Source: Eledone cirrhosa (lineage: Eukaryota). Taken from it: a stretch of DNA of 64,000 nucleotides. The number at the start of each line of letters is the position of its first letter. Positions within the stretch are counted from its first letter, which is position 1. The translations under genes and the position numbers were made by a program. The stretch spans positions 87,358,001 through 87,422,000 of the forward strand of contig OZ024744.1 in the NCBI GenBank assembly GCA_964016885.1, given 5' to 3'. Under the pieces are notes generated by a model. It did no database searches and was not told the DNA's origin. It worked only from the letters and a program-made list of their open reading frames with translations. Shown one piece after another: positions 1,575 to 56,498 of the stretch.

Positions 1575-1610
<36 letters not shown>

Positions 1611-1614
<4 letters not shown>

Positions 1615-2297
1615 GGAAAAAATGAAACTAAATTTCATTTCCCACTCTTAGTACGGCTGTTACTTAAATATAAGTATGTATACGTACATACATATATGTA
1701 TACAGACGTACAGTAGTATGTATATATATATACATACACACATATATATATGTACGTATGGATTCACCATACTATTATTATAATGCTCGGTGTGTTTGTA
1801 AACAAACATCCCGTATAAAGCCGCAGTGTCTAGCAACCATCGTTGCTCGTTTGTTCAACACTGACAAATACACCGAGCATTATAATAAATGTTTGGTGAA
1901 TCCATACGTACATATATATATGTGTGCATGTATGTATACATATATATAAATACTACTGTACGTCTGTATACATATATGTATGTACGTATACATACTTATA
2001 TTTAAGTAACAGCCGTACTAAGAGTGGGAATTGAAATTTCGTTTCATTTTTTCCGTTTATCGTTTTCGGTGCACCCGGCCGATTAACCCACCCGATATGC
2101 AAATTGGGCTACTCAGCCGTTAATATGCATAAGGTAAGTATATACTTTCGGACGTTCAACAATCTGGCAGGAAGGTATACGTTGCTGACGATAGCTAACA
2201 AGCTATCCATACGTACATATATATATGTGTGTGCATGTATGTATATATATACATACTACTGGTCGTCTGTATACATATATGTATGTACGTATACATA

Positions 2298-2300
<3 letters not shown>
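1611..2300. mobile_element. Fold-back copy of HHR-bearing non-coding repeat (same family as 30194-31066); HHR truncated in stem II
   Basis: Inverted arms about 1611-1797 and 1865-2058. The + strand continues to GTTG-CTGACGA-TAGCTAACAAGCT (2181-2204), then jumps to a downstream part of the monomer. Clear homology to 30194-31066. Confidence 0.8.
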
Positions 2301-2377
<77 letters not shown>

Positions 2378-2684
2378 TATATGCGTGTGTGTGTGTATGT
2401 GTTAATATTTAGACACACACACACATATATATATACACATATATATATATACATATACATATATAACTTTATATATATATATATACACACATATATATAC
2501 ATATATACATATATATATATACCTACATATATATAAAGAGAGAGATACATATATATATGAATAGATATTTTATTTATATATAAATTTGGTATTTCTCTAG
2601 AAACACGGTTTTATAGGAAGCCGTAACCATGCAAACACCGGGGCTAGCGCCCTCTGCTGGTGTCCAGCAGAAGCAAGGGGGACA

Positions 2685-2728
2685 ACCGTCTATTCATTTC
2701 AGGCTTAACTGGCCTTCGTCAGGACGGT
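2685..2728 (-). ncRNA. Minimal type I hammerhead ribozyme, intact core
   Basis: Minus strand ACCGTC-CTGACGA-AGGC-CAGTTAA-GCCT-GAAA-TGAA-TA-GACGGT: 6-bp stem I, CUGANGA core, 4-bp stem II, GAAA, minimal stem III, UA cleavage site. Confidence 0.85.
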
Positions 2729-2931
2729 GCCTCCCACCGCTTGCTACTGCTGGACTTGAATACAGTCGAGAATATATAGTTTTCTCGTCTGAATAAATGA
2801 GGTGATCAATCTCATTTGCATATGAAGCTGCATAAGTTGGCTCAAATGAGATTAATCACCTCATTTGCACAGACAAGAAACTATATATTCTCGACTGTTT
2901 TCAAGTCCCGCAGTAGCAAGCGGTGGGAGGG

Positions 2932-2975
2932 ACCATCCTGACGTAGGCCAGTTAAGCCTGAAATGCATAGACGAT
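2932..2975 (+). ncRNA. Degenerate hammerhead copy (A9U, stem I mismatches)
   Basis: ACCATC-CTGACGT-AGGC-CAGTTAA-GCCT-GAAA-TGCA-TA-GACGAT; palindromic loop III TGCA. Confidence 0.7.
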
Positions 2976-3122
2976 TGTCGCCCTTGCATCTGCTGCACAC
3001 CAGCAGAGGGCGCTAGCCCCGGTGTGTGTATAGCTACAGCTTCCTAAAACCGTGTTTCTTTAGAAATACGAAATTTCTATACATATTTGTATAAAGCTAT
3101 GCTTGAAGCGAAATACTATTTC

Positions 3123-3168: not shown

Positions 3169-3357
3169 CGAAGGAAATGTGGTAAGGAACCAGGTGGACC
3201 ATAACGCACCAAAGTACTCAATACTTAGGGTAGTAGAGTAGGTAATAGGAACGAGTAAGACCCGACGGCTGAGCTCAAGCCGTTTCGACGGCTAATTCTC
3301 CGTCTGAGAATTAGCCGTCGAAACGGCTTGAGCTCAGCCGTCGGGGTCTTACTCGTT

Positions 3358-3362
<5 letters not shown>
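3167..3362. repeat. Near-perfect palindrome (56-bp arms, 3245-3362) made of two hammerhead 3' halves, plus pLTR-like tail
   Basis: Arms 3245-3300 and 3306-3362, loop CGTCT. Each strand reads GAAA-CGGCT-TGAGCTC-AGCCG-TC-GGG (stem III plus GUC site). Flanked by (TA)n on both sides. Confidence 0.8.
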
Positions 3363-7284: not shown

Positions 7285-7387
7285 AATGATATTAATAAAT
7301 GGAAACTATATTTATAAAACCATATTTATTCTATTATATATATTTCAAGGGTACCATTAGATAAAATACAAAGTTGTTTTATAAATA
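7285..7387 (-). mobile_element. pLTR-like fragment of the 26272-26480 family with an internally deleted hammerhead
   Basis: Minus strand TGTATTTTAT-CTAATG-[gap]-GTACCCTT-GAAA-TATATA-TA-ATAGAATA...GGTTTTATAAATATAGTTTCCATTT, homologous to 26340-26460 and 57585-57650. Confidence 0.7.
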
Positions 7388-20901: not shown

Positions 20902-20937
<36 letters not shown>

Positions 20938-20940
20938 AGT

Positions 20941-21062
20941 AGTTCCACAACAGTTATTCACCATACCTGGAATATTGTTTTCACCTTATTCAGATCGTGA
21001 GCTCGGTCTATACCAAACTCATCCATTGGATCGAGGGCTCTACTGCTACGGATATAACCCAC
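20941..21062. mobile_element. Diverged, inverted fragments of the 57186-57442 HHR family
   Basis: Minus 20941-20996 GATCTGAATAAGGTGAAAACAATATTCCAGGTATGGTGAATAACTGTTGTG matches 57264-57315. Plus 21016-21060 matches the reverse complement of 57186-57230. Confidence 0.65.
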
Positions 21063-21114
21063 CAGCGTTCTATTATACACACACACACAAACACACACAC
21101 ATCTATTTATGCAT

Positions 21115-26271: not shown

Positions 26272-26480
26272 CTATTTAAATTGTTGGGATACAACAAGCA
26301 AATATTTTTATAACTGATATAAAGCACTCAACAACTAATTGGAGTAAAAATACGATATTAACAAATGGAAACTATATTTATAAAACGATATTTATTTTAT
26401 TATACATATTTCAAGGACATCAAGTTAAATTATGGTGTGCTTTCATCAGATAAAATATAATATAGAGCAGTTTTATAAAT
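26272..26480 (-). mobile_element. Solo pLTR-like module carrying a hammerhead, between TA tracts
   Basis: Homologous to 57473-57650 and 7285-7387; contains the HHR at 26393-26457. Confidence 0.8.
26393..26457 (-). ncRNA. Type I hammerhead ribozyme, intact core
   Basis: Minus strand TATTTTAT-CTGATGA-AAGCACACCA-TAATTTAACT-TGATGTCCTT-GAAA-TATGTA-TA-ATAAAATA: perfect 8-bp stem I, 8/10 stem II. Confidence 0.85.
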
Positions 26481-29700: not shown

Positions 29701-30436
29701 AGACAGATGCTCATACGTATATATGTATACACATACATACGAACAGATCCTGAAATATCTATCTTTAATTAAGAATTATAAATACACAAATAATTAATAC
29801 GTCAACTACCTTCAATTTCCTATTCACACGTACATATACACTAGAACGTACGTTTTATTTAGTTTTATTTCCGAATAAGCGCTGTATTGAGGTCTAAATT
29901 TGTTCAATGTTAACCTCTCTGGTTTGTCCGCATCGTCTCCGCTATAGGTTGCTCTTTTCTGCATATAGTTCATCTACAGTTGTGCGTTTATAATGAAGCT
30001 TAAACTTTGCAGAGGACATCAATTACAGGTCTTAAACACCTATACATATTTAGATAAGTTCATTATAAAGAATTCTATTTGAATTTGAATGATGTACCTT
30101 GCAGATAGTATATTATCCTAATACCAATTTCATATATGTGAATAACTAGGGAGAAAACGCTTCAGAAGTTTTATTTATATATATATATATATATGTAAGT
30201 ATGTATGTATATATGTATACGTACATACATATATGTATACAGACGTACAGTAGCATGTATATATATATATATATATATATATACATACAGGCACACATAT
30301 ATATATGCACGTATCAGTTTACTGAACATTTATTATAATGCTCGGTTTGTTTGTTTGTAAACAAACAAACAGCCTGAATTACGCCGTACAGTGTTTAGGC
30401 AACCATGTCACCTTTTTGTTCAACACTGACACAGGA

Positions 30437-30479
30437 ACGATGTACTAGTTTCAAGCTTGTTAGCTATCGTCAGCACCGT
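30437..30479 (-). ncRNA. Minimal type I hammerhead ribozyme
   Basis: Minus strand ACGGTG-CTGACGA-T-AGCT-AACA-AGCT-T-GAAA-CTAG-TA-CATCGT; palindromic loop III. Confidence 0.82.
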
Positions 30480-30712
30480 ATACCCTTCTGCCAGATGGTT
30501 GAACGTTCGAAAGTATATACTTTCCTTATGAAAATTAACGGCTGAGCACCCTAATTTGCATATCGAGTGAGTTCAGTCGGCCAGGCGCACCGAAAACGAT
30601 AAATGGAATAGAATGAAATGAAATTTCATTTCTCACTCTTAGTATGGCACTTACTTAAATGTAAGTATGTATGTATACGTACATGCATATATGTATACAG
30701 ACGTACAGTAGC

Positions 30713-30771
<59 letters not shown>

Positions 30772-30920
30772 CAGGCACACATATATATATGCACGTATCA
30801 GTTTACCGAACATTTATTATAATGTTCGCTTTGTTCGTTTGTAAACAAACGAACAGCCTCATTTACGCCGTACAGTGTTCAGGCAACCACATCACCTTTT
30901 TGCTCAACACTGACACAGGA

Positions 30921-30963
30921 ACGATGTACTAGTTTCAAGCTTGTTAGCTATCGTCAGCACCGT
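30921..30963 (-). ncRNA. Minimal type I hammerhead ribozyme (identical second copy)
   Basis: 43/43 identical to 30437-30479, offset 484 nt. Confidence 0.82.
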
Positions 30964-31089
30964 ATACCTTTCTGCCAGATGGTTGAACGTTCGAAAGTAT
31001 ATACTTTCCTTATGAAGTAAGTGCCGTACTAAGAGTGAGAAATGAAATTTCGTTTCATTCTATTCCTATATATATATATATTTATATAT

Positions 31090-33760
31090 ATATATATATA
31101 TATATAAATGAAAGGATTACAAAGGAGAAAACATACTGTTAGAACAGGTTTATACAAAAGCACCTACGTACGTTTCGCCCGAAAATGGCTTCTCAAGGGC
31201 ATACCAATCTAGAGAGTGTTCAGTATAGAACCCAGAAGGGGTTTTAAGAAGATAGGCACACCGAAGTTCATTCTTGATTCAAACAGACATGGTTGATATT
31301 GTCACAGATCAAGGGGAGTAACTCTGACCGGTGTTTGAATAAATGTCCCTAAATGGTTTACTATCCGTTCACATGATGGTTGTTCTCCACTACCGCTTTA
31401 TGGGTGCCACTTTACTGCTGCCTAGTCAAGCCGGATCTGGGAAGAATAGTTGGTGTACAGATGTTTATTTATGCAACCTGCCCACCAGTGCGTTATGGTT
31501 TGGTGCAGGGGGACCCAGTTTATGGTGTTCAGGTCTCAACTGGGGTCCAACCATAGAATGAATGCTGTATTCTGTGTCTGCAGTTTATTTCAGATTCTGC
31601 TCTGCTGTTGATGAGCTCAGGGTGTGCTCTTACGATATGGTAACATTCCATGAGGCAGAGCTGGCACTTCCTCTTGAAGTTGTACGGTGTTGCCCTGCTG
31701 AAAATTTCCCAGTATGTGGAGAAGCTAATGTTGGAGTCTTTTAATGTGTGATGTAGTTGGCGAGTGATGTGGAGTATCTAAGCTTATTGTTTCTAAAAGA
31801 GTGGAGATGCGTTCGAAATCTAGTTTTGAACGAGCCAGAGGTGGCCCCTATATAATTCTTGACTATTATGGCTAGTTACGATGCACCTATAAATAACATT
31901 GTTTGTCAGGCAACTTCCCCGAGCGGACAGCTACTCTGGTCTCCACAGTTGCAGTGTCGGCTGCGGTCGCTGCCGCTACCGTGGCTCATAGTGCCCGAAG
32001 TAAGGCTATTACTATCACTACCAATGTTATTGTCCACGCCACCGCCACTATCACCGTAATTAGTACTATTATATCCTGTAGCGCGCGGGGTAGTACCATT
32101 AGAGGGAGGATGAAACCACAGGACGTTACGTTTACGGTTACGCGTAGCTGTGGGCTTACTACGGGTCGTGTTGGCTAGGTAACCGTTCTTATTGTTGCTA
32201 CTATGAAGCAGCCTACTAAGTGTCCCCTTCGCTTTATGCTCGAGTGCATTTGCCATCCTTGCGTTACGTTTACGTGTAGCTAAACGCCGATTAGAGGGTG
32301 TAGGTGATAGGCCATCGCTATTGTTAATCTTATAGGTAGGGAATAATTCTAGTAGGCTACAGCAGCTACCGTTGCCCATATCATGACCTTATTATGCGGT
32401 CGGCCTTCTACACCACCACCCATGTAGTTAACGCTGCGGTCGTGTTTCTTAGTGCGATTCTCTATACTATAGTTATTGGCTCTATCATGGCCGCTGCGTA
32501 TTCGGTTATAGGTATGACTTAGTATAACATTAGTCCTATAATGAGGGTGGTTTCTAGCCTCAGCGTTAGGGAGGTAGGAGATTCTACGGTTATATCCGGC
32601 ATCCACCAAGGCATTGTTTTAGTAGTCAGCAGCTTGGTTGAAGATGTCCTCGTTGGCGGAAATCCTCGAGATCCTGTGGGATATGCTATATACTATGGAG
32701 TTGAGAGTAGACTTAGCGTGGTTTGATGTATAATTAATATATGATAGAATCTCGCCGGGCCTATGGTATGGCTTGTACAGGCCCGTACCCAACTCCAGGG
32801 TCACGTCTTGGAAGTTGACTATCTGGTGGTTGAGGTCTATAGTTACGGATAGGCCATATGATTTGAAGAACCTGTGTATGCGCTTGTTAAGGTTCTCTAT
32901 CCTGCGGGGGCTATAGTTTCTAACAGTAAATAGGGCGTCTTCCCTATATACACCTCCTTGTAGGACCGGGATCTCGTCCCTAAGGAGGTATATTCCAGCC
33001 AGATCGGTCGCTTTCGCCGGGTCACTAGACCCCATCGTGATATCGAAGATATCAGGACGGTTGGTTCTGGTCCAATGGGAACCCTCGAACTGGATAATAG
33101 TTCTGCGCGCTGCTAGTACTATATCTATCTCTTTTTTAGTGAGGCTAGTGTTAGATTTAGCTAAGATAAGGGCCTTGTTTAATAGTTTGGGGAGATAGAG
33201 GCATAGTAGCTCTCTATGTCAAACTGGATGAACTTTAGAGTTGTCTTATCGGGCAATTATGTGAATCAATTAATGACCTGGTCAGTGTTGTTCCAGAGAC
33301 AGACCTTAGCTTTGTTATTAAGTTCAAGTATTACTATATCGAGGATCACTTTACTAATATTACCTATATCCGATGTAGAGGGACATATTAATCTAATAGA
33401 TGTGCTTTCATTAAAATTACATTTGTGATCCTTAATGACGCACACCTCTTCGTTACTTCTGACAAACCCAAGAAGATGTATAAGATGGACGTGAGCAAGT
33501 ACAAACAATTCCTTTATAACGTATTACACAAACATTATAAAAAAAACACCCATTAGTACCTTAAATGACATTAATAGAGTAGGGAAGGATATAGTGACTA
33601 GCTTAGACAGATAAGTACACTAACCCTATGACACCTAGATTCTCTTTTAAGGTCAAAGCGGCCGAACCATTCCGGGTAAATTCAAAGTGTGAACAAAGGA
33701 TTTTTTCACAGCCTCATATGAGCTCTCAACTAGCTTTACAAACAATCAATTAAATAATTA
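31090..33760 (-). mobile_element. Decayed Penelope-like element (RT, Cys motif, C-terminal GIY-YIG, 3' pLTR)
   Basis: KDHK.NF...RLICP, FIQFDIESYYASIS, FDITMGS.D.A...DLAGIYLL, GVYREDAL, VNFQDVTL, SNH, RKRNVLWFHPP, CNC....CPL, VIYRC...YIGATSGSFKTRF. Confidence 0.92.
31160..31200 (-). ncRNA. Hammerhead variant with U3-A8 compensatory core in the Penelope 3' pLTR
   Basis: Minus strand GCCC-TTGAGAA-GCC-ATTTTCG-GGC-GAAA-CGTACG-TA-GGTGC; palindromic loop III; stem I short and bulged. Confidence 0.7.
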
Positions 33761-42676: not shown

Positions 42677-45600
42677 TTTCTTTATTAACCACAAGGGTTT
42701 ACATAAAGTAGACATTAAGGACAGTACAGGACAATACAGGACGGTACAATGGGCAATTCTGCGTGTAAAAAAATAAAAACAGAGGATGTAACAAAAAAAA
42801 CAATGAAAAATTCCCCAATAGGGGGGAGACTTCCGAGAGACATTTGTGGAGATAGCCAATTATAGGGCCACAGTGACCCTGACCACCAGGGCAAGTGCCC
42901 TCTCCCAGTTTTCCACCTTTAATTTACAGACACATACTCAGAGTAGGCCCATTCACTCGGGCCATACTTGCTTCTCTCACCCATCTTTCAACAAAATTCT
43001 GGGGAGAGAGCACTTCCCTCACTACCATCATTATCCTTTTCAAATGAAATTTGAAAAAGTTAATCAGGGCATCACCGAAGAGGTAAGTGCTCGTCTTCAG
43101 CCCTTTCAAACGTGTCCCCCATACTATCTCTTTCGCCATGGCCACCAGACAGATAAAAACTGCCTGCCCTTCCCGGCTAAAGGAAGATGGCGGGGCAATC
43201 CTCACGATGGACTCAGCTAATAGCTGGATCCGTCCTACACGTGACAGCAGGTGTTCGACATAAACCCACATGTCAGCAATGCTCGGACACTGGACGAGTG
43301 CGTACAGGACGGTTTCGTCGCCCTGCGCGCATCTCGGACATGTCCGGCTGACGGCACCTCCATGCCTGTAGAGTTTATCCCGAACTGGCAAAGCTCCTCG
43401 GTAGCACTGCCAGGCCAGGGATTTCTGGAAGTTGTCCATAGGCCTCGGCCCGAAAGTTCTTCCGAAGAGATTAGCTAGTTGAATTTCGTCGACGCCTATA
43501 GTTTCTCCAAGTACGTCGTCGCTCTTCCCCTCCACTAATCCTCTACAGAACACCAAGGTGGAGTTTCCACCGATCACATTGCCCGATTGATCGAGGGTTG
43601 TGAGCGCCTGATGACATTCCAGTCTCCAAGTGCTCCCTCTCGGTTTTCGCTTGACAGCAGCTCCGTCAAGGAGACGAGCTGGGGAAAGACGCGTCTAACA
43701 AACGGCGACCACACCTGATCACCGTCGAGGAAGAGGTGGAGATGTCGTAGCCTGAGCGCGTGTCTGCGCATCATCAGCCACTGCATGCCTAGCCCTCCGC
43801 GTAGCGGGTGTTGACAGCAGATGGACCGCCTGACCATCGGAGCGCGTCCCTTCCACATAAAGCGAAAGAGAGAACGCTCCAGTGCAGTCAGGCGGGGCTT
43901 AGGACAAGGTACGACGGTCAGGGGGTAGTAGATGACGGATGCGATGTACGCGTTAGCCACCTCCGCTCGACCTTTCAGGCATAGCTTCCTCTCCGCCCAT
44001 TTCTGGGTGAGAGAAGCCACCCAGCTCATCTCATCGTCCCAGTTTTTGTCCGTCTGGAGGTCCGGACCGAACCAGACCCCTAGCAATTTAACCGGTCAGT
44101 CCGTCCAGCGCCCGACGACGCTGTTGGACGGCATGGACCTGCCTCTCCAGGTGCTGAGCTGCAGGCCCACTGACTTTTCCTGGTTGATCATTGCTCCTGT
44201 CACCGCTTCGTATTCTCTTAGTGTAGTGCCGATCGCCTCGATTTGTTTGGCGTTGGAAACCACTACGGTGACATCGTTCGCATATGCTGAAACAGATCTT
44301 TCGCATTCTAGTTCGCGCGGCACGCCCCTCAACGTCTCCAGTTTGTGCAGTAATGGCTCGAGAATCAATACGTACAAAAAGGACGAGAGGGGACATCCTT
44401 GGCGGACCGAGTGCATGATGTTGAACGGTTCCGAAAGGTGACCGTTCACTTTCACCACAGAGCAGATGTTGCTGTGCATGGCAGCGATCCAGCCTCTAAA
44501 GATGGGTCCAAACGCAGCCTTTCTCAGGACTGCCGCTAGGTAACGATGGTCGACCCTATCGAAAGCTTTCGACTGATCTAAATTGATCAAGGACCCACCC
44601 GTGCCAGGTTCCCTAGCTACCCTCTCTACGATGTATCGCATGAGGTGGAGGTTGTCGAGGATGGATCTGTCTGGAATGGCGCATGTCTGCGCTCTCCCAC
44701 CAGACCACCAACGACAAGCGCCAACCTCTTTGCTAGCACCTTGGCCAAATCTTGAACTCTATGTTTAGCAGAGTTATGGGCCTGCAATTATCTATGTTAT
44801 CCCCCTTGTTCGGATCCTTTCTCAGCAGCGCCACAGCTCCTCGGCTCACAGAGCTGGGAATTCTCCCGTTCTGTTGCCAGTTGCCGTAGACGTCCGCCAA
44901 GAGGCCTCCGAACAAGTCTGGCATATGTACGTATAGTTCATAGGGCAGACCATCCAAACCAGGCGATTTACCCCTTGTGCAGCTAGTCATTGCCTCCCGT
45001 AATTCAGCGGCTGTTATCAGCTTTTCGCAACACCCCGCCTCAGTGGCCGAGAGCCGCGGCAATCCGTCGAAGTAGACACTAAAGTCCATCACTCGATCCG
45101 GCCCGCCGCTGCCTCCGAACAGTTGTGCGAAGTGTCGCTGAAAAGCTTCACACATTTTGCCGGGATCGAGTAGCATACGCCCGTCGTGGTCCACCAAAGA
45201 CCGGATCGTGGCTTTGTTGCCACGACGCGCCTCCGCCACTCGGGCCCATTGAACGGCTTTCGTCCCCTCGTGTTTGAGAGCACGCACCCTAGCTCTGACA
45301 ACGGAGCCTTGGTGCTTTGCATTGAAGAATTGGTCAAGGGCCAATTTCCCCGCAAGTACGTCGGTCGCGATGTCTTTGCTAAGCGCCTCGTCTAATTTTC
45401 TAACTAGTTCTCCCTCTGCTCTATTTTTCTCTATTTCTAAAGCCTTACTAAACCTAATGGACTCTATTGTAATCGATCTTTTCAGAGCAAACCACCACTT
45501 GTTGTTGACGATGGCCCCCGTCAACGCCCGCTTAACTAGTTCGCTAATCCGGTCTCTGTATGTCTTGCGCGCTGGTAAGGACGCGTTTAGCTTCCAGTAG

Positions 45601-48185
45601 CCGGGTCCTCGTCTATGAAGGCTATGCTAGATCTATCTATTTCCATACCAAATACTCTATCTAGATATGATCTGGATGCCCCTATGCGATTTGTCCAATC
45701 CACATTGGCACATTCGGGAAATCCAATCGGTACCTGTCAGACAGTTCAAAACGCCTGAGCAGGTTGGTGAGACTCTTGCACCCTCCTCCTCTATCCACTA
45801 ATTCCACACAGTCCCCAGCGTGTATCTAAGATCCCGTTCCAGTCTCCCACTAACACTAAAGAGCGGGACGTTCCAAGAAAGGTCTCCAGACGCCGGAAGA
45901 AATCAGGCCGCCATGTTCCTTCGGGGCATAGACGGTCACTAGCCTGAAAGCTTGCGCGTCTTCGCTGGTCACGTCCAGCACCACCAACTTACCTTCTGGG
46001 TCCAGGAAGATGGCCCGTATGGCGAGATCCAAACCTCTCCGAAAAGCACAACTCCTCGCCCCGATCCAGGACGGCTGGGAGATGCGTACACATCGTAGCC
46101 GCGGAAGATCGGTGCGAAGGTCCGTGCTTCGGAGATTCTGGTCTCGCTGATGGCTACTACATCTATGTTTAGTGACCTGAGGTCGTTGAGCAGGTGGCCC
46201 TGCTTCCATGACGACCCCAAGCCATGCGCATTTATGCTGGCTATTCTGAGTGAGCTCATGTTCAAATAGAGTGGAAAAGATGGGAAAGACTACTTACCTT
46301 ACTTCTCGTAGAGGAAGGATAGTTTCTCCATCCTTTTCGCTGCTTGTGGCCTCCTCCGGAATTTTTGTTTTAGTGTCGTGTACGTTTTCTATGTGATGCG
46401 AGTGAATTGTATGTGAAGAGGTGGTGTGAACTTTTGGGTTGTTGTGTAATCTTTTTCTGTGATGCTGGTGTTGTGTTGGATGTAGTGTAATAATTGGTTG
46501 TTGTTCAAATTTAATGCTGTGTAGTGTGAATCGTTTTGGTTGTTTTGTTTTGTTTGCGTTTGTTGTTTCTGTTTCGCTTTTCGGTGACTGTTGTGGTGTT
46601 GGTGATGGTGGTGTTGGGGTTAATGATGGTGTTGGTGTTTGTGGTGATGGGGTTGGTGATGCTGGTGTGGATGGTGGCATATGTGTCCTAACTCTTTTGT
46701 TTGTTAATTTACTTTTTTCCCTCTGTATTTTGTTTTTGGAGGGGGAAGAGAAATTTTTCTTTTTTGGTTTCTTTTTCTTTCTCTGATACCGTTTTGGTGT
46801 TGCTACTGTTGCTGGGGTTGTTGCTGTTACAGTTGCTTCTGTTGTTGCTGCTACAGTTGTTGCTGCCATCTCTGCTGCTGGTGGTGTTGATTGTTGAGTC
46901 ACTGGGGTGGGTAAGAGAGGTCGCCTCAACCTTTTAGCCTGAGGGCAGAAAGCCCTTAGGTGGGTTCCTTCACCACAAACGACACACCTAGGTCTTCTGC
47001 CCTCGACGATTACGGTGAGGTGGCTGCCGTCAGTGAGGTCTATTACCTCTGGGATCTCCTCAGTGCTTTTATGGTCCGCTTGGATCAGGAGCTCCATCCC
47101 AGATCCAGACCAGTTCTCCTGCTTTTCTTTTGCGAGGACTGCAGCCATTAGCCAGGGAATTTCGATGGCCGGTGGAACGTGGGTCACCCAGATCTTCACA
47201 AGTCTCTGGCCACAATAGCTTGGGACGAGTGTGAAGTCGTCACTTCTTAATGGGGCCATGGAGTGTTCTCTGGCCTCCTGTGGTGTTTCAAAGAACACGT
47301 CCACGGTTCCATACTTCTGCCCACGTCTGATGTGGGTTTTTTTGCCCACACATGTCCCAAAGCTTTTTGGATTTGGGACTCGGATGCCCGTTCCACTCGG
47401 CGCGATTTTATGTTAATTGTCCGATAAGACACGGTGCATAGGCGACGTTGCTCCATTTTATTAGGTGGGGGGTTAGGCTGACCCTGTACCCATCTTTCTT
47501 TACCATTCCTTTGGCTTCTTCTAATTCCTCCTGAGTTACCAGGATCGCTTCGCACGTTTTTGCTACTCTGGCAAAACTAAGGGTAGTTTTCTTAATTTCA
47601 TTGTTGTTGTTGTTGTTATCGTTGTTTTTGCTATTGTTAATTTTAGTTTCAGTTGTGGTGGTGGTGGCCTCAGTGGTGTTCGGTGTGGAAGAGTTCATTT
47701 TGGTTGAATTCATTTCGATATCACGAGTTAATTTTTTTGTTTTTGTTTCTGTTGTCGCTGTGGTGGTGGTGGGTTGGTGGTTGTCGCGGTGGTGGTGGTG
47801 GTGGTGGCGGCTTTAACACCTGCAGTCAATGGTAATGGCGGGAAATGAACGTCTGCCTGAGACAAATTTAAAATATTGGTACTGCTTACATTTCCAGTGT
47901 TGGCAAACGTAGCAATATTTACAAGGGTGGTGTCGGTGTGAGGTGTTAGAGTGTGAGGAAGGGGTGACTCTGAGACATCCATGATTTTTTAAAGAAAGAT
48001 TTTTGTTTGATAATTATAAAAAGTTTAAATTTTGGGCTCAAGGCCCAAATATTTTTGAGTGTCCTTTTCAGAAATCAATGTATGTGCACTTATATACAGT
48101 TAACAATAAAAAATTTCCATATATGGCAATTTTAAACAACTGAAATTACAAACCATTGCCGAGCTCACGATGATACGAGTTACTA
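42677..48185 (-). mobile_element. Near full-length Tx1 (L1-clade) LINE with frameshifted ORF1 and ORF2
   Basis: ORF1 about 47982-46294 with zinc knuckle CVVCGEGTHLRAFC. ORF2 46265-42924: INAHGL/SET (APE), WWFALK, KSPGLDGLP, RPITLLN, DQSKAFDRVDH, VRQGCPLS, AYAND, CPRC....ET..Y....C. Confidence 0.93.
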
Positions 48186-49379: not shown

Positions 49380-52300
49380 ACAGTTGCATTTATCTTGCTT
49401 TATGTTCATACGAGTTATCACCAAGTCACAACCAGTGACCTCAAGAGACAACAAGGTCCGCCATGTTCAAGAAAGAACATACATATTCACACATGCATCT
49501 TTAGTGTTTAGACTTGTGATGTACTTATATTGACAGAATCTTCCTTAGTATATGGGCAGTTCCCATTAGTACTATCTTTTGTATTTCTCCTATACGCGGG
49601 TTTCCTGGGATTTGCGATAAGTAGTCATTAGAACCCTTAGGTATCATTCCCAGAGCGCCTACAACCACTGGTATTGTTTTAGTTCTCAATTTCCACATTT
49701 TTCCAATTTCTATCTCCAGGTCCTTATACTTGCTCAATTTTTCAAATGTTTTTATAGATACATTCTTGTCTATTGGAACAGACATATCAATTAGCAGGCA
49801 TACCCTCTTTTGAAAGTCCTTCAATATTATATCAGGTCTATTTGTATCTATTTTTCGGTCTGTTTGGATGCTAAAGTTCCACAAGATTGAGATGTGATCT
49901 TTTTCGAGTATGGGAGGTGGTTGATGCTCCCACCAATTCTTTTGATGGGGCAGGTCAAAATGCTTACACATTATCCAATGTATGTATTGTGCAGCTCTGT
50001 CATGCCTGTTTAGGTATTCGGTTAGAGCTATAGGACTGCACATTGAAATTATATGGTCAATGGTCTCTGGTTGTTTTTTGTTTTGCATACACGGCATAAT
50101 GGGCTACACCCAAATTTATTATGTTGGGTTGGTAATTTTTGTTGGCAGACACTGATCTTGTGCCGATATAATCAGTCCTTCAGTCTCCGATTTCAGTCCA
50201 GAGGATGCCAACCACTGATGGGTTAAAGTTTTGTCAACATCAGGATTGTTAGCTCGCTCTGGGTATTTTCCATACAGAGGCTTTTCTTGCCATTTCTTAG
50301 CCAGTTTATGTAGCAGTTCTTTCTTTGCAGTTACTTTTACCTGCTTTGCTTTTTCTGTGTTTTCCATTTCAGCAGTAAATGGGACTTCTGAAATGTGTAG
50401 TCCATTACTGTATCTTTGTGCATCTTTTGTAATGGAATATGATCTTTGGATGCTTTCGTGTTTCAAAACGAGTTTGATCATCCAATCATGTGATTCCCTT
50501 AGATATGTAAATAATCCAATTGTTGCAGTTTTCAACGCAATGTCTAACTGGATTAACCCACGTCCTCCTTCTTTCCTAGGGAGATATATTCTATCTATAT
50601 CTGCCTTAGGGTGATGCATTCTGTGCATGGTTAAGAATTTTCGAATTTTTGTATCGAGCATACGGATCTCTGTGCTTGACCAGTTGATGACATTGTAACT
50701 GTAGGTTACTACTGGTATGGCAAGCGTGTTTATGGCATCGATCCTATTCATTGCATTCAATTCCGTTCTTAAGATTGCTCTTACTCTGCGGTAACATTCC
50801 ATCCTTATCCTTTCCCTCATTGTCGAGTGCTTGATTCCGTCTCCTTCACAAACACCTAGATATTTGTAAGTTTTTTCTTGATCAAGTTCTCTTATCACGT
50901 TCCCCCGATCAAGATTAATGTCTGAACTCTTCAGCAGCTTTCCTCTGGTGAACGTTGCTTTGGCGCATTTATCTAGTCCAAACTCCATTTTAATGTCATC
51001 ACTGAACTGCTTCACAGTGGATAATAGCCCTTGCAATTGTTCATCATTTTTTGCAAATAGTTTCAGGTGATTAATGGTTTTGTCATAGACTTTATATCCA
51101 TGTTTTGTTTCATTGAGCATTTTACTTAATGGTATAAGTGCGATGCAGATAAAAGCGGTGATAAAGAGTCACCCTGAAAAATTCCACAATTAATATTAAC
51201 TTCTCCAGCTTCCAGTGATTTTATTTCACTATTCAAAAGGAGTGTCGTTTTCCATGTCTTCATACTGAATGACAAAAACCTCCTGACAACGGGGGATATT
51301 TTGAAAATCTCTAAACATTTTTCAATCCAACTGTGTGGCAAACTATCGAATGCTTTTTTATAATCTATCCAAGCAATCGATAGATTTTTGTGTCTATTAT
51401 GACAATCTTCCAGTATCATTTTATTAACCAGAAGCTGATCCTTACAGCCATATGAGCCTCGTTTACACCCTTTCTGCTCAATGGGAAATAGGTCATTTGT
51501 TATCAGGTGGTCATATGTGTATTCAGTTAGGACTGATGTTAAAATTTTATACATTGTGGTCAAGCAAGTTATCGGTCTGTAATTTTTGGGATTGTTTGTC
51601 TCATCATTCTTCGGAAGCAGGAATGTAATGCCGCTAACTAGCCATGATGGTATTTTTCTGGCTCATTAACTATTTCATTGTAAAGTTGGGCTAACAGCTC
51701 ATGAGACTCTGTGAAGGCATTTATCCAAAAAATTTGTATTTTGTCTTTTCCTGGGGATTTCCATTTGCTGGTTTTTCTTAGAGCCAAGCGCAACTGTTCA
51801 ACTGTTATATTTTCCCATATTTGTTCCTCAAGGTGAGCTGTATCGTTCATTTGACTGTCTATCCATGGGACATGTATGTTATGAACTTTTTCTTCGGCCC
51901 AGATCTTTTCCCAGAATTCTTGCACTTCCTCCTTGGGTGGTATTGATTTAGCAGTTATTGTTAACTTACCAATTTTTCTGTAGAAGTTTCTTTGGTTGTT
52001 TTTGAACATATTATTGTCCTTATAGAATCTAGATCGTTTTTCAAAGCGCCTTATACGAGCAGCTTTGGCCGACACTTTTTGCTTGATTATTTCTATCAGC
52101 ATGTCTATGTCACATGTTGATTTTATACTGTACTTTTTTTTCAATTTTCTAAGTTTAGTTTGTTTAACATGTTCACCTACTTTATAGTTTGTTAAAATTT
52201 CTATGTCAGATCGGAGAAGGTTTATTTGGCGATTGATGTTCTCTTGCCAAGTAGATTTCTTGTGGGAATTCCTTTGTTGTTTCATCTTCACTCCACATAA

Positions 52301-53325
52301 GTGAGTGGTGACTTTAGCCGATGCATAATAGAGATGATTTAAATCAGTAATGTTTACTTTGTTTGTGATGATAATGTTTTTGAGAATTATGTTAGTCTTG
52401 TGTATTATCTTTTGGTTCTGTTTGGAGTTCTGGATCTTAGGGAGGGTGTCTCGTTGCCCCATGTCAGATTCTTTCATTTTCATCCATTCGATCATAATTT
52501 CATCCTTCAAGTTGGCAAGTTCATTCTCATTCATTTCTTTATCATTTACGATCTCATTATTTTCATTTGGAGTTTTATCCTGAGCATGCACTCCCTCCAC
52601 TTTTTCGATCCTTTCTTTAATTTGTTCTGTTGCCAGTGATTCCGCCCCAACCCTGGGGGTTCGAAGTGTTACAGTTTACCTCGTTTTCACTGACACATGT
52701 TTCATTTTCCCTTCGCTGACTTTGTGCTAATAGCTTGATCTGATCAATTTCTGTATCAGTAAGTAACTTTTTTCTTACAATATTTCTTCGTATATTGGCT
52801 AGTTTGTTACTATCAATATAGCCTCTGTTTTCGGGATGTTTCTTTTTCCAGTTGATATATGTCTGTTCTGTATTCGATGTATTTGATGGGTAGTACATGG
52901 CAGTGTAGAAAGCCTCAAGGACTTCTTTATTATCTTCCCTTGACCATTTTTCTCTCTTTTTCTTTGGATTTCTTGGTGGTGAGCATGGAGGGCCAACAGT
53001 AGGAGTATTCCGGTTATGGGAGGTCTCCAGCTCCGAAGTGATGGGAAGGTTTGAACCATTAGCTGATTTTTCGACCCCAGTCTGGTTCCTCTCTGAGGGA
53101 CGCGGCCCTTTTTTACCCGGGTGACGGCCGATCCGGTATGAGATTTTATCATTAGACATTTACTTTATTTTGTCGCGTTTTATCCTTATCCGCCAAGGGG
53201 TAATCATTTCGTGTTACCACTTCTAGAATGAGTGTCAACCAAGACTAGAGGGGTCGTTCTCCCCTAGAGACACGGCTATCCCCCGCCGGCCGCCATCCCG
53301 GTATTTCTTGGTCACGGGGTTTTCT
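49380..53325 (-). mobile_element. Near full-length R4/Dong-type RLE LINE, single ORF broken by frameshifts
   Basis: ORF pieces 53159-49525: WSREDN, WKSPGKD, YRPITCL, EQKGC, WIDYKKAFDS, GIFQGDSLSPL, YKYLG, GGRGL, AQDQ, ETIDHIISMC, RHD, RPD, EKLSKYKDL, VVVGALG. Confidence 0.93.
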
Positions 53326-53459: not shown

Positions 53460-54548
<1,089 letters not shown>

Positions 54549-54553
54549 TTAAT

Positions 54554-55080
54554 GTGAATGACAATAACAATAGTTTAAATACGAATAATAATAGAACACC
54601 TAGAAATAATAATGATAATACGAATAGTTTAGGTTATAGAAATAACATGGAATTGAACTGTAACTGTAGAAGGAAATCTGAATGCCCTTTACAAAATAAT
54701 TGTCTTGACAAGAATATAGTATATAAATGTACCATTAAGACAAATAATAATAATACTTATAACTACATTGGTGCCACTTCATCGAACTTTAAATTTCGCT
54801 TTTCCAATCATAAACATTTTCCATCCAGATAAAAAATTTTCTACATCATTATCACAATTAATATGGTCTTTAAAAGAGAAAAATATTAAATACTCAATTT
54901 CTTGGAGTAAACTAAAGAATTATGATTCCTATCGGAACGCTTCCATTTTACCAAATTGCAATCTTTGCAATTTGGAAACTCTATTAATAATTATAAATTA
55001 TGGTAATTTAATTAATAAGAAAAAATAATTATTCGGAAGTTGTCTACATAAGTCTGGAAGAACATTTCAAGCATTATACA
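54554..55080 (+). mobile_element. Penelope GIY-YIG endonuclease 3' fragment
   Basis: CNCRRKSECPLQNNCLDKNIVYKC...YIGATSSNFKFRFSNH...STSLSQLIWSLK...CNLCNLE. Confidence 0.9.
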
Positions 55081-56208
55081 AATTTCGAAAAAAAATACAG
55101 ACTATGAAGAGAGAAAAAATATTGACTATTAATAATTCTTGAAATATTATTATTATTATTATATGTATATAATGTTTTGACTTACCTTAAAAATTGTATA
55201 TCGTTTTTATATAGTAAATTAATCTCATGATGAGACTCGTTATCTTAAGTTTGGAATCTAGAATGGTCATTGTGTAACTAGAAATTTCTGAATTTGCGGT
55301 TTGAAATATCTTTTGGCTTTCAAAGTACTTAAATATCTTAAATGTTCACATACGTTGAACGAGTTATCTTCCTTTGTTTACATTCTTCGTAAATCATTTT
55401 TTTCTGTCCAAATGGATTGATAATGTATATTTAACATGATTTATACAGTTTAATAATATACGAAAAATCCTTAAAGGGAAACTATATATAATAAGATGTA
55501 ATTACGGACGTTAAATCGAAATAATAATACTTTTAAGAGTAAATATAACTACTAATTAATCCTGTAATGAAATGATAACCAATGAATTGAAATGATTTTA
55601 TAATGAAAATAGAATAATTCAGATAATAATTCTTAACATTCATATAAAATACATATACTGATGGTGATATATGCATAGGTTTTAGTAAATATCTTTATAG
55701 ACTTGCTTTAAAGATAAAAATGTTTTTAAATATTGTAACAAAATATTTAGTAAATATATTAATTAAAATATGCTTCTGATTACTATAGAACATATTTTTA
55801 TATTGTTTAATTTTAATATAATATATTAGTATAATTAGCTTAAACATAACCAAATACAAAAGATATAAAAAAATGTCATGGTATTTAATTGGTCGCTTCT
55901 ATTTGACTTAATATTTGAAAACAACGGTCACACATCATTTCCCTTTCTTTCTTTTTGCCGTTACGTCTTTCTTCTCTCTTCTATTTAAATATTTATGTAT
56001 GTATGTATTTATTTTCTTCTTGCATTTCCTCATACTCACCCCCTCCTTACACCTATATCTCGCTCCACATCCTCTTCTTCATTAAATTTAAGTTTATCAT
56101 CTTATTATTTGTGGTATTTAAATGTTGAAATATGTTGTAATAAATCACTGCCAATACTGGAATTGAACCATCAAGACCGTTGAGGTATGTCATACATCAA
56201 TTCATGTA

Positions 56209-56270
56209 TTTTATCTGACGAGAACGTACTGAAAAAACAGAACTGTACCTTCGAAATATATATAATAAAA
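56209..56270 (+). ncRNA. Type I hammerhead ribozyme, intact core
   Basis: TTTTAT-CTGACGA-GAACGTAC-(15 nt)-GTACCTTC-GAAA-TATATA-TA-ATAAAA; 6-bp stem I, 7/8 stem II, palindromic loop III; about 140 nt before (TA)n. Confidence 0.8.
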
Positions 56271-56411
56271 CATATTTTGATTATGTAAATGTCTTCATTT
56301 ATTAATATTCTGAATAATATTAATAACTCCAGAAAACTTCATTGTAGGGTGCTTTTAATCTATTGTAAAACTATATTCATTGAGTAATCAATAAACCATA
56401 TTAATCTTTAG

Positions 56412-56498
<87 letters not shown>

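Follow-up and report, generated by a model that had tools for sequence, protein, structure and literature searches.

The insertion at positions 30194..31066 (minus strand) of the window, by which we mean the whole 64,000-nt stretch of Eledone cirrhosa DNA that was analyzed, is probably a non-autonomous non-LTR retrozyme mobilized by Penelope-like elements (PLEs). It belongs to a high-copy family of tandem repeats that encode no protein and carry predicted hammerhead ribozymes (HHRs). A first-pass annotation had already proposed a non-LTR retrozyme family, and this proposal is supported by the tandem non-coding unit, the type I HHR in each unit, the GC content of 35%, the predicted self-paired circle and the high copy number. 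Beyond what that annotation described, we found a U.U mismatch at the base of HHR helix II, an insertion layout of the PLE type and an adjoining decayed PLE.

The insertion consists of an inverted tail followed by 1.7 tandem units, with (TA)n on both sides. The tail (30599..30660, minus strand) measures about 52-60 nt and lies between two fixed 3' ends, E1 (~30660) and E2 (30599-30605). Unit 1 (31016-30659, minus strand) is 5'-truncated and starts the tandem, and unit 2 (30194..30532, minus strand) is partial and ends at E1 in (TA)n. The outer 5' end (31015..31066, plus strand) repeats the ~52-nt tail in inverted orientation (96% to the reverse complement of 30605-30656) and carries the family-majority letters at its two differences from the internal tail. 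This piece is the inverted 5' cap reported in the first-pass annotation, and given the insertion layout described below it is the PLE tail. The internal (TA)n tract, likewise reported earlier, lies at 30716-30771 and is 26 nt longer than in unit 2. Because its length differs between the units, the unit length is variable, about 458-484 nt. As stated before, there is no credible ORF: the longest sense Met-ORF in the insertion has 52 aa, and a 104-aa antisense frame crosses the TA repeat. The units stand head-to-tail, and an LTR/PBS/PPT organization is absent as judged from the layout. No target site duplication was readable at the insertion, where both flanks are (TA)n; runs of (TA)6 or more make up 3.7% of the window.

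A second copy (1609..2307, plus strand) is 86% identical over 302 nt. It starts with an inverted piece (1609-1866), whose outer end is E2 and maps to 30599, and continues with a direct piece (1864-2204) that stops inside HHR helix II, where the sequence jumps to the final piece (2205-2307), whose end is E1, in (TA)n. Template jumps are evident in this copy, and its HHR is cut off in helix II. The earlier claim of a diverged copy at 1611-2300 is therefore upheld, except that the copy is not differently permuted: its two outer ends are those of the main copy, and its HHR is truncated. Both window copies share E1 on the direct side and E2 on the inverted side, and only the 5' break points differ, so the second copy does not read as a random circular permutation. 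Loose ends into TA-rich sequence were also seen in contigs of public sequencing runs, at 30669 in 55 contigs of run X1 (agreement 0.63) and at 30599 in three contigs of run X6. Inverted-tail joints occur in other contigs as well (30590/30672 in X1 and 30569/30647 in organism C, run X5). A partial tandem, an inverted 5' copy, a one-ended tail and a bias to (TA)n are described features of EN+ PLEs (Craig et al. 2021; PMC3846280), and this layout, with a microsatellite target, was found in two of two window copies.

Other repeats occur elsewhere in the window. About 270 nt from the second copy, across (TA)n, an unrelated non-coding hammerhead family forms a head-to-head inverted pair (2577-3081, arms 85% alike) with a canonical type I motif in one arm (C3 at 2722, minus strand) and a changed core in the other. 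A near-perfect inverted repeat with arms of ~58 bp lies at 3245-3360 beside a (TA)n run. A direct repeat of only 81 nt (95%) lies at 57250-57445; a hammerhead is weakly matched at 57259, and related sequence is found at 20921-21065. The minus strand also carries a long LINE-type ORF fragment (49525-53159), whose RT has PF00078 relatives at up to 63% identity (the named relatives are scattered animals, at 54-56%), and a second LINE-type element (43574-47412) with endonuclease- and RT-like frames.

Scanning both strands of the window by structure, we obtained six motifs resembling type I hammerheads. The insertion holds two of these on the minus strand, at 30963-30921 (C3 at 30957, H17 of a GUA triplet at 30927, predicted cleavage after 30927) and at 30479-30437 (C3 at 30473, H17 of a GUA triplet at 30443, predicted cleavage after 30443). 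The two predicted cleavage sites are 484 nt apart, and the scan confirms the two identical 43-nt HHRs with this spacing that were noticed at first. The hammerhead core is complete in both tandem units. The identity of the HHRs amid variable flanks had been considered meaningful. The identical run covers 65 nt (30968-30904, including the 43-nt motif), and over 335 aligned sites the units show 15 differences, besides a 26-nt TA indel. At this divergence the probability of 43 nt without a difference is 0.14, and with P ~0.14 we ruled out the identity as a mark of selection.

Helix I has 6 bp (one G.U) and is lengthened by the flanks into a stem of ~25 bp. Helix II has 4 bp above a U.U mismatch at its base (10.1-11.1). 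Helix III is either one A-U pair with a palindromic tetraloop or, alternatively, 2 bp closing a loop of 2 nt. Two features weaken the motif, the U.U at the helix II base and the near-absent palindromic helix III. The min-HHR of PLEs is described as having a G10.1-C11.1 pair, a long helix II and a short helix I (PMC4209133), whereas the locus motif, with its U.U, 4-bp helix II and 6-bp helix I, resembles the 'canonical' metazoan type I with a short palindromic helix III.

Searches of Rfam with 30310-30660 and 30420-30500 (E<=10) returned no hammerhead family, and no hammerhead was among the 150 of 241 matches listed for the whole window; the miRNA matches were below gathering and were discarded as TA/TG-repeat noise. 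The exact HHR pattern had no match in metagenome contigs and none in viral contigs. A relaxed pattern (letters of the core, helix II and helix III, and none of helix I) had a single match in the metagenome, in contig L001 (L001:1-1153). Its hammerhead agrees with the locus HHR in core, U.U and palindrome but has a fully changed helix I, in which six of six pairs are kept and five are changed on both sides. This covariation was scored in 12 of 500 shuffles, with slid controls lower, in a comparison of only two distinct rows. Next to its hammerhead motif L001 carries short telomere-like repeats, and it contains a direct repeat of 1,076 nt, a combination described for EN-minus PLEs (Craig et al. 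2021).

Among the variable places in the family contigs, three fall within the HHR against 4.0 expected (39 places, 40 of 73 rows listed): one in loop II, one turning the helix I G.U into A-U, and a helix I change at 0.2%. None of the 39 listed places falls on the 13 core bases (1.2 expected; not significant). From newt satellite 2 comes the idea that an octamer-like motif upstream of the HHR serves as an snRNA-type promoter; such motifs occur seven times in the window against 6.9 expected, and we rejected this candidate.

Cleavage at both sites would release a monomer of 484 nt with 35% GC (30926->30443, minus strand). Folded as a circle, the monomer is predicted to be 72% paired, with z = -7.7 for the whole monomer and -4.3 once the TA-rich part is removed (40 shuffles each). 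The two HHRs had also been proposed to pair as a dimer. For isolated motifs the model energies favor this (strand-swapped trans dimer, -19.0 vs 2 x -6.5 kcal/mol). In cis they do not: in an 823-nt precursor the swapped dimer reaches -274.0, two local folds -281.6 and the free fold -285.8 kcal/mol, so that the cis dimer is 7.6 kcal/mol less stable than the local folds, under a model in which neither tertiary contacts nor so small a helix III can be scored. For the inner pairs of helix I the ensemble probability is only 0.13-0.21.

Two axolotl HHRs provide a measure of such weakening. HHR_Amex2, which also has U.U at the helix II base, was 22% cleaved in 1 h as a monomer and more as a dimer, and HHR_Amex1, with a 1-bp helix III, was 6% cleaved in 1 h alone and better as a dimer (PMC7229834). 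Both weaknesses, that of helix III in Amex1 and that of helix II in Amex2, come together in the locus motif. Because the motif is doubly weakened, cleavage would likely need a dimer and may be low; self-cleavage is plausible on these models, but probably low and dimer-dependent. In Xenopus, one of nine predicted retrozyme dimers cleaved in vitro (bioRxiv 10.64898/2026.07.22.740005). In our judgement, the chance that the family makes free unit-length RNA is somewhat short of even, and it is unlikely that this particular locus does.

Directly upstream of the insertion, on the same strand, lies a decayed EN+ PLE that is not of the same family (31110..33500, minus strand). It comprises an RT fragment (33218-32619), a Zn-finger-like motif and GIY-YIG fragments, with several stops and frameshifts, and has its own degenerate hammerhead near 31200-31155. 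A search with the RT fragment gave 3,089 relatives (E<=0.001; 54% identity for the best), and its full-length relatives have an RT, a Cys motif and a GIY-YIG-type C-terminus (Pfam support sub-threshold), the layout described for Neptune/Nematis (Craig et al. 2021). PLEs with the RT-ZnF-GIY-YIG layout are present in this genome. The motif order in the homologues P0003 and P0007 suggests that the decayed PLE is of the Neptune/Nematis type. Pfam gave no RT match for the neighbor's fragments or five homologues, and its only GIY-YIG matches were sub-threshold, in P0006 and in the window at 54533-54829; word-index protein searches with the neighbor's RT gave 0 and 1 matches.

The insertion site is the terminal (TA)n of this decayed PLE, in line with reports that PLEs insert beside older PLEs (PMC6765202). 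The 484-nt unit shows no similarity to the decayed PLE (blastn, E<1e-3), which excludes the latter as the parent of the unit, and it is equally unlike both of the PLE 3' ends that the window contains. Nowhere in the window is a PLE ORF (RT + GIY-YIG) bounded by the unit, there is no ORF between the units, and no autonomous PLE partner for the unit was identified in the window. The other PLE traces in the window are a second endonuclease fragment (54500-56420, plus strand) followed by a hammerhead-like motif at 56215, a motif similar to the latter at 26401-26449 (minus strand), and short related 3' pieces at 7288-7354 and 57587-57648.

Six public sequencing runs, none of them recorded as RNA, contain the stretch, and we aligned the contigs of four of the six to a 423-nt reference. 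This yielded 10,539 contigs in X1, 221 in X6, 4 in organism B and 12 in organism C; one of the organism B contigs, 478 nt long, covers the full 423 nt and shows 19 differences. The family is highly repeated in organism A and apparently low-copy in organisms B and C, and X1 may be the source sample. The first-pass annotation had proposed to check the copy number; the X1 contigs and the second window copy show a multicopy family. As a rough estimate, the copy number would be of the order of thousands, with a bracket of ~1,000-40,000 that assumes single-copy depth and overlap; summed contig depth was not equated with copy number. The word share of X6 is small (0.18), and we did not take its contigs as expression. 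The share of aligned contigs that run on into unlike sequence is 0 in X1, where contigs are short, 0.02 in X6, 0.74 in X4 and 0.4 in X5; the loose ends listed for the last two fall at 30659-30711, the TA-rich edge. With 20 of 256 loose ends listed, a rare ORF-linked copy is compatible with these data, and the zero share in X1 indicates that ORF-linked copies are not common in that run.

The two tandem units are different variants of the family, which bears on how the tandem arose. In the aligned part they differ at 12 sites, and at 9 of the 12 the organism B contig carries the letter of unit 1. At six of these nine sites the majority of X1 agrees with unit 2, and the letter of unit 1 is found in a minority (1.7-19%, 20-79 contigs); the remaining 3 of the 12 are absent from the variant rows listed (40 of 73). 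Because the nine differences are shared with organism B, the units are pre-existing family variants; independent later mutation would not recreate such shared letters. A circular monomer as the template of tandems is a hypothesis of the published retrozyme model (PMC7229834), and a rolling-circle origin was implied by the first-pass annotation. Rolling reverse transcription round one 484-nt circle would fit the intact upstream HHR and the position of the ends, internal to the monomer. However, one circle copied repeatedly would give units that match at insertion, contrary to the shared differences and to the majority and minority letters, so we consider this origin improbable for the present tandem. 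Later gene conversion could rescue it and is compatible with the data. More likely, the tandem came from a template jump from one family RNA to another, from a multimer of mixed units, or from conversion at a later time. The mixed units concern the origin of this locus and are compatible with circles made by the family.

Two further alternatives accept the PLE layout and deny the unit an RNA life cycle of its own or a working ribozyme. In one, the unit is the pLTR (3' end) of an autonomous PLE, of which the copies would be debris left by 5' truncation and template jumps. Copies of autonomous PLEs have exactly this insertion layout (Craig et al. 2021; PMC3846280), PLE insertions are mostly 5'-truncated and PLE HHRs mostly solitary (PMC4209133; bioRxiv 10.64898/2026.07.22.740005), the copy at 1609 has template jumps, and Xenopus retrozymes are homologous to pLTRs in 24 of 57 families (bioRxiv 10.64898/2026.07.22.740005). 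Yet the units join with no coding sequence between them in each of the window copies and in the 478-nt organism B contig, no X1 contig runs on into unlike sequence, the HHR is of the canonical type with U.U rather than a min-HHR with the conserved G10.1-C11.1 and long helix II, and the unit is unlike both PLE 3' ends in the window. We regard this origin as unlikely. We give a little less credence to a PLE-mobilized repeat with an inert or near-inert hammerhead, spread as uncleaved linear read-through RNA with no free 484-nt RNA or circle. The doubly weakened motif, the unfavorable cis dimer and the mixed units would fit such a repeat, as would insertion ends that lie off the cleavage site, with HHR1 copied whole together with 90 nt upstream. 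The same holds for the HHR variants, which are not significantly depleted (3 of 39 listed places vs 4.0 expected), and for the Xenopus assays, in which eight of nine tested dimers were inactive (bioRxiv 10.64898/2026.07.22.740005). Against it, the core is intact in both units with no core variant among the rows listed, and Amex2 is active with the same U.U (PMC7229834). In addition, the inverted piece of the copy at 1609 ends ~11 nt short of the cleavage site (reference 30431 vs 30442), as expected from a cleaved template, in one case only.

The reading that we favor is a PLE-mobilized retrozyme, for which we propose the following course. Tandem copies would be transcribed by read-through, and weak, mainly dimer-dependent self-cleavage would yield monomers of ~460-490 nt, some of which a host ligase may close into circles, as in the mussel and the axolotl. 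The RT and GIY-YIG endonuclease of an autonomous PLE would then act in trans. The endonuclease would nick a (TA)n target, and cDNA would be primed from both target strands at the AT-rich ends E1 and E2, so that a direct array and an inverted tail arise. The tandem itself would be built by template jumps between family RNAs, or by copying of a mixed multimer, and not by a pass round a single circle.

New here are the family itself, the PLE insertion anatomy and the mixed tandem; retrozymes as a class, including those of molluscs, were already known. How animal retrozymes move has been argued on indirect grounds, with PLEs as the proposed helper and circular RNA as the proposed template. This family combines PLE insertion marks without an ORF with enough copies to test the single-circle origin of tandems from one assembly. 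A more tentative and more far-reaching possibility is that it is a young family of thousands of copies that targets (TA)n and makes abundant circular RNA of variable length (~460-490 nt), its copies recording Penelope insertion chemistry in their two fixed primed ends, inverted tail and units from different templates. If this is true, it would provide anatomical evidence in an invertebrate that PLE enzymes mobilize retrozymes and a genome-scale direct test of the circle-as-template model; with a cephalopod as host, it would also be the first such family found in our literature search. That search returned no cephalopod hammerhead or retrozyme, and the supplements of earlier surveys may list one; in the accessible text of PMC13282606, on Octopus vulgaris repeats, the word 'ribozyme' has 0 occurrences.

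Among known systems, the insertion is close to those of EN+ PLEs (Craig et al. 2021; PMC3846280; PMC4209133) in its partial tandem, inverted piece, one-ended tail, (TA)n, HHR and adjoining older PLE. It differs from them in having no ORF, a tail of about 52-60 nt rather than 30-40 nt, and an HHR of the canonical type instead of a min-HHR. Integration driven by a pLTR in trans has been reported (PMC3846280), and non-LTR retrozymes have been argued to derive from PLE pLTRs (Li, Clavereau, Pollet, bioRxiv 10.64898/2026.07.22.740005). That argument is based on co-occurrence and pLTR homology, mostly in vertebrates, whereas ours is based on insertion anatomy in a genome that looks invertebrate, with no homologous pLTR found. 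Chlamys PLEs such as MRC1 likewise are ORF-less, form pLTRs, insert head-to-tail and are mobilized by PLEs, but they come from green algae and belong to a PLE group reported without hammerheads (Craig et al. 2021).

The closest parallels are the metazoan non-LTR retrozymes described by Cervera and de la Pena (2020, PMC7229834) from Mytilus galloprovincialis, Acropora millepora and the axolotl (Rtz_331/Rtz_353). In the mussel there are about 5,000 HHRs with units of 350-390 bp, and circles have been demonstrated (PMC7229834). The present family differs from those of PMC7229834 in its length (484 vs 170-400 nt), its internal variable (TA)n, the union of both weakening features in one motif and the explicit PLE-type tail and inverted end; 484 nt is inside the range of 51-972 bp given in bioRxiv 10.64898/2026.07.22.740005. 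It shares with them (PMC7229834) a non-coding tandem, a type I HHR in each unit, a GC content below 45%, a predicted self-paired circle, a copy number of the order of thousands and coexisting PLEs. The likeness to the axolotl extends to the ribozyme itself, with the U.U at the helix II base of HHR_Amex2 and the 1-bp helix III and palindromic tetraloop of HHR_Amex1 (PMC7229834).
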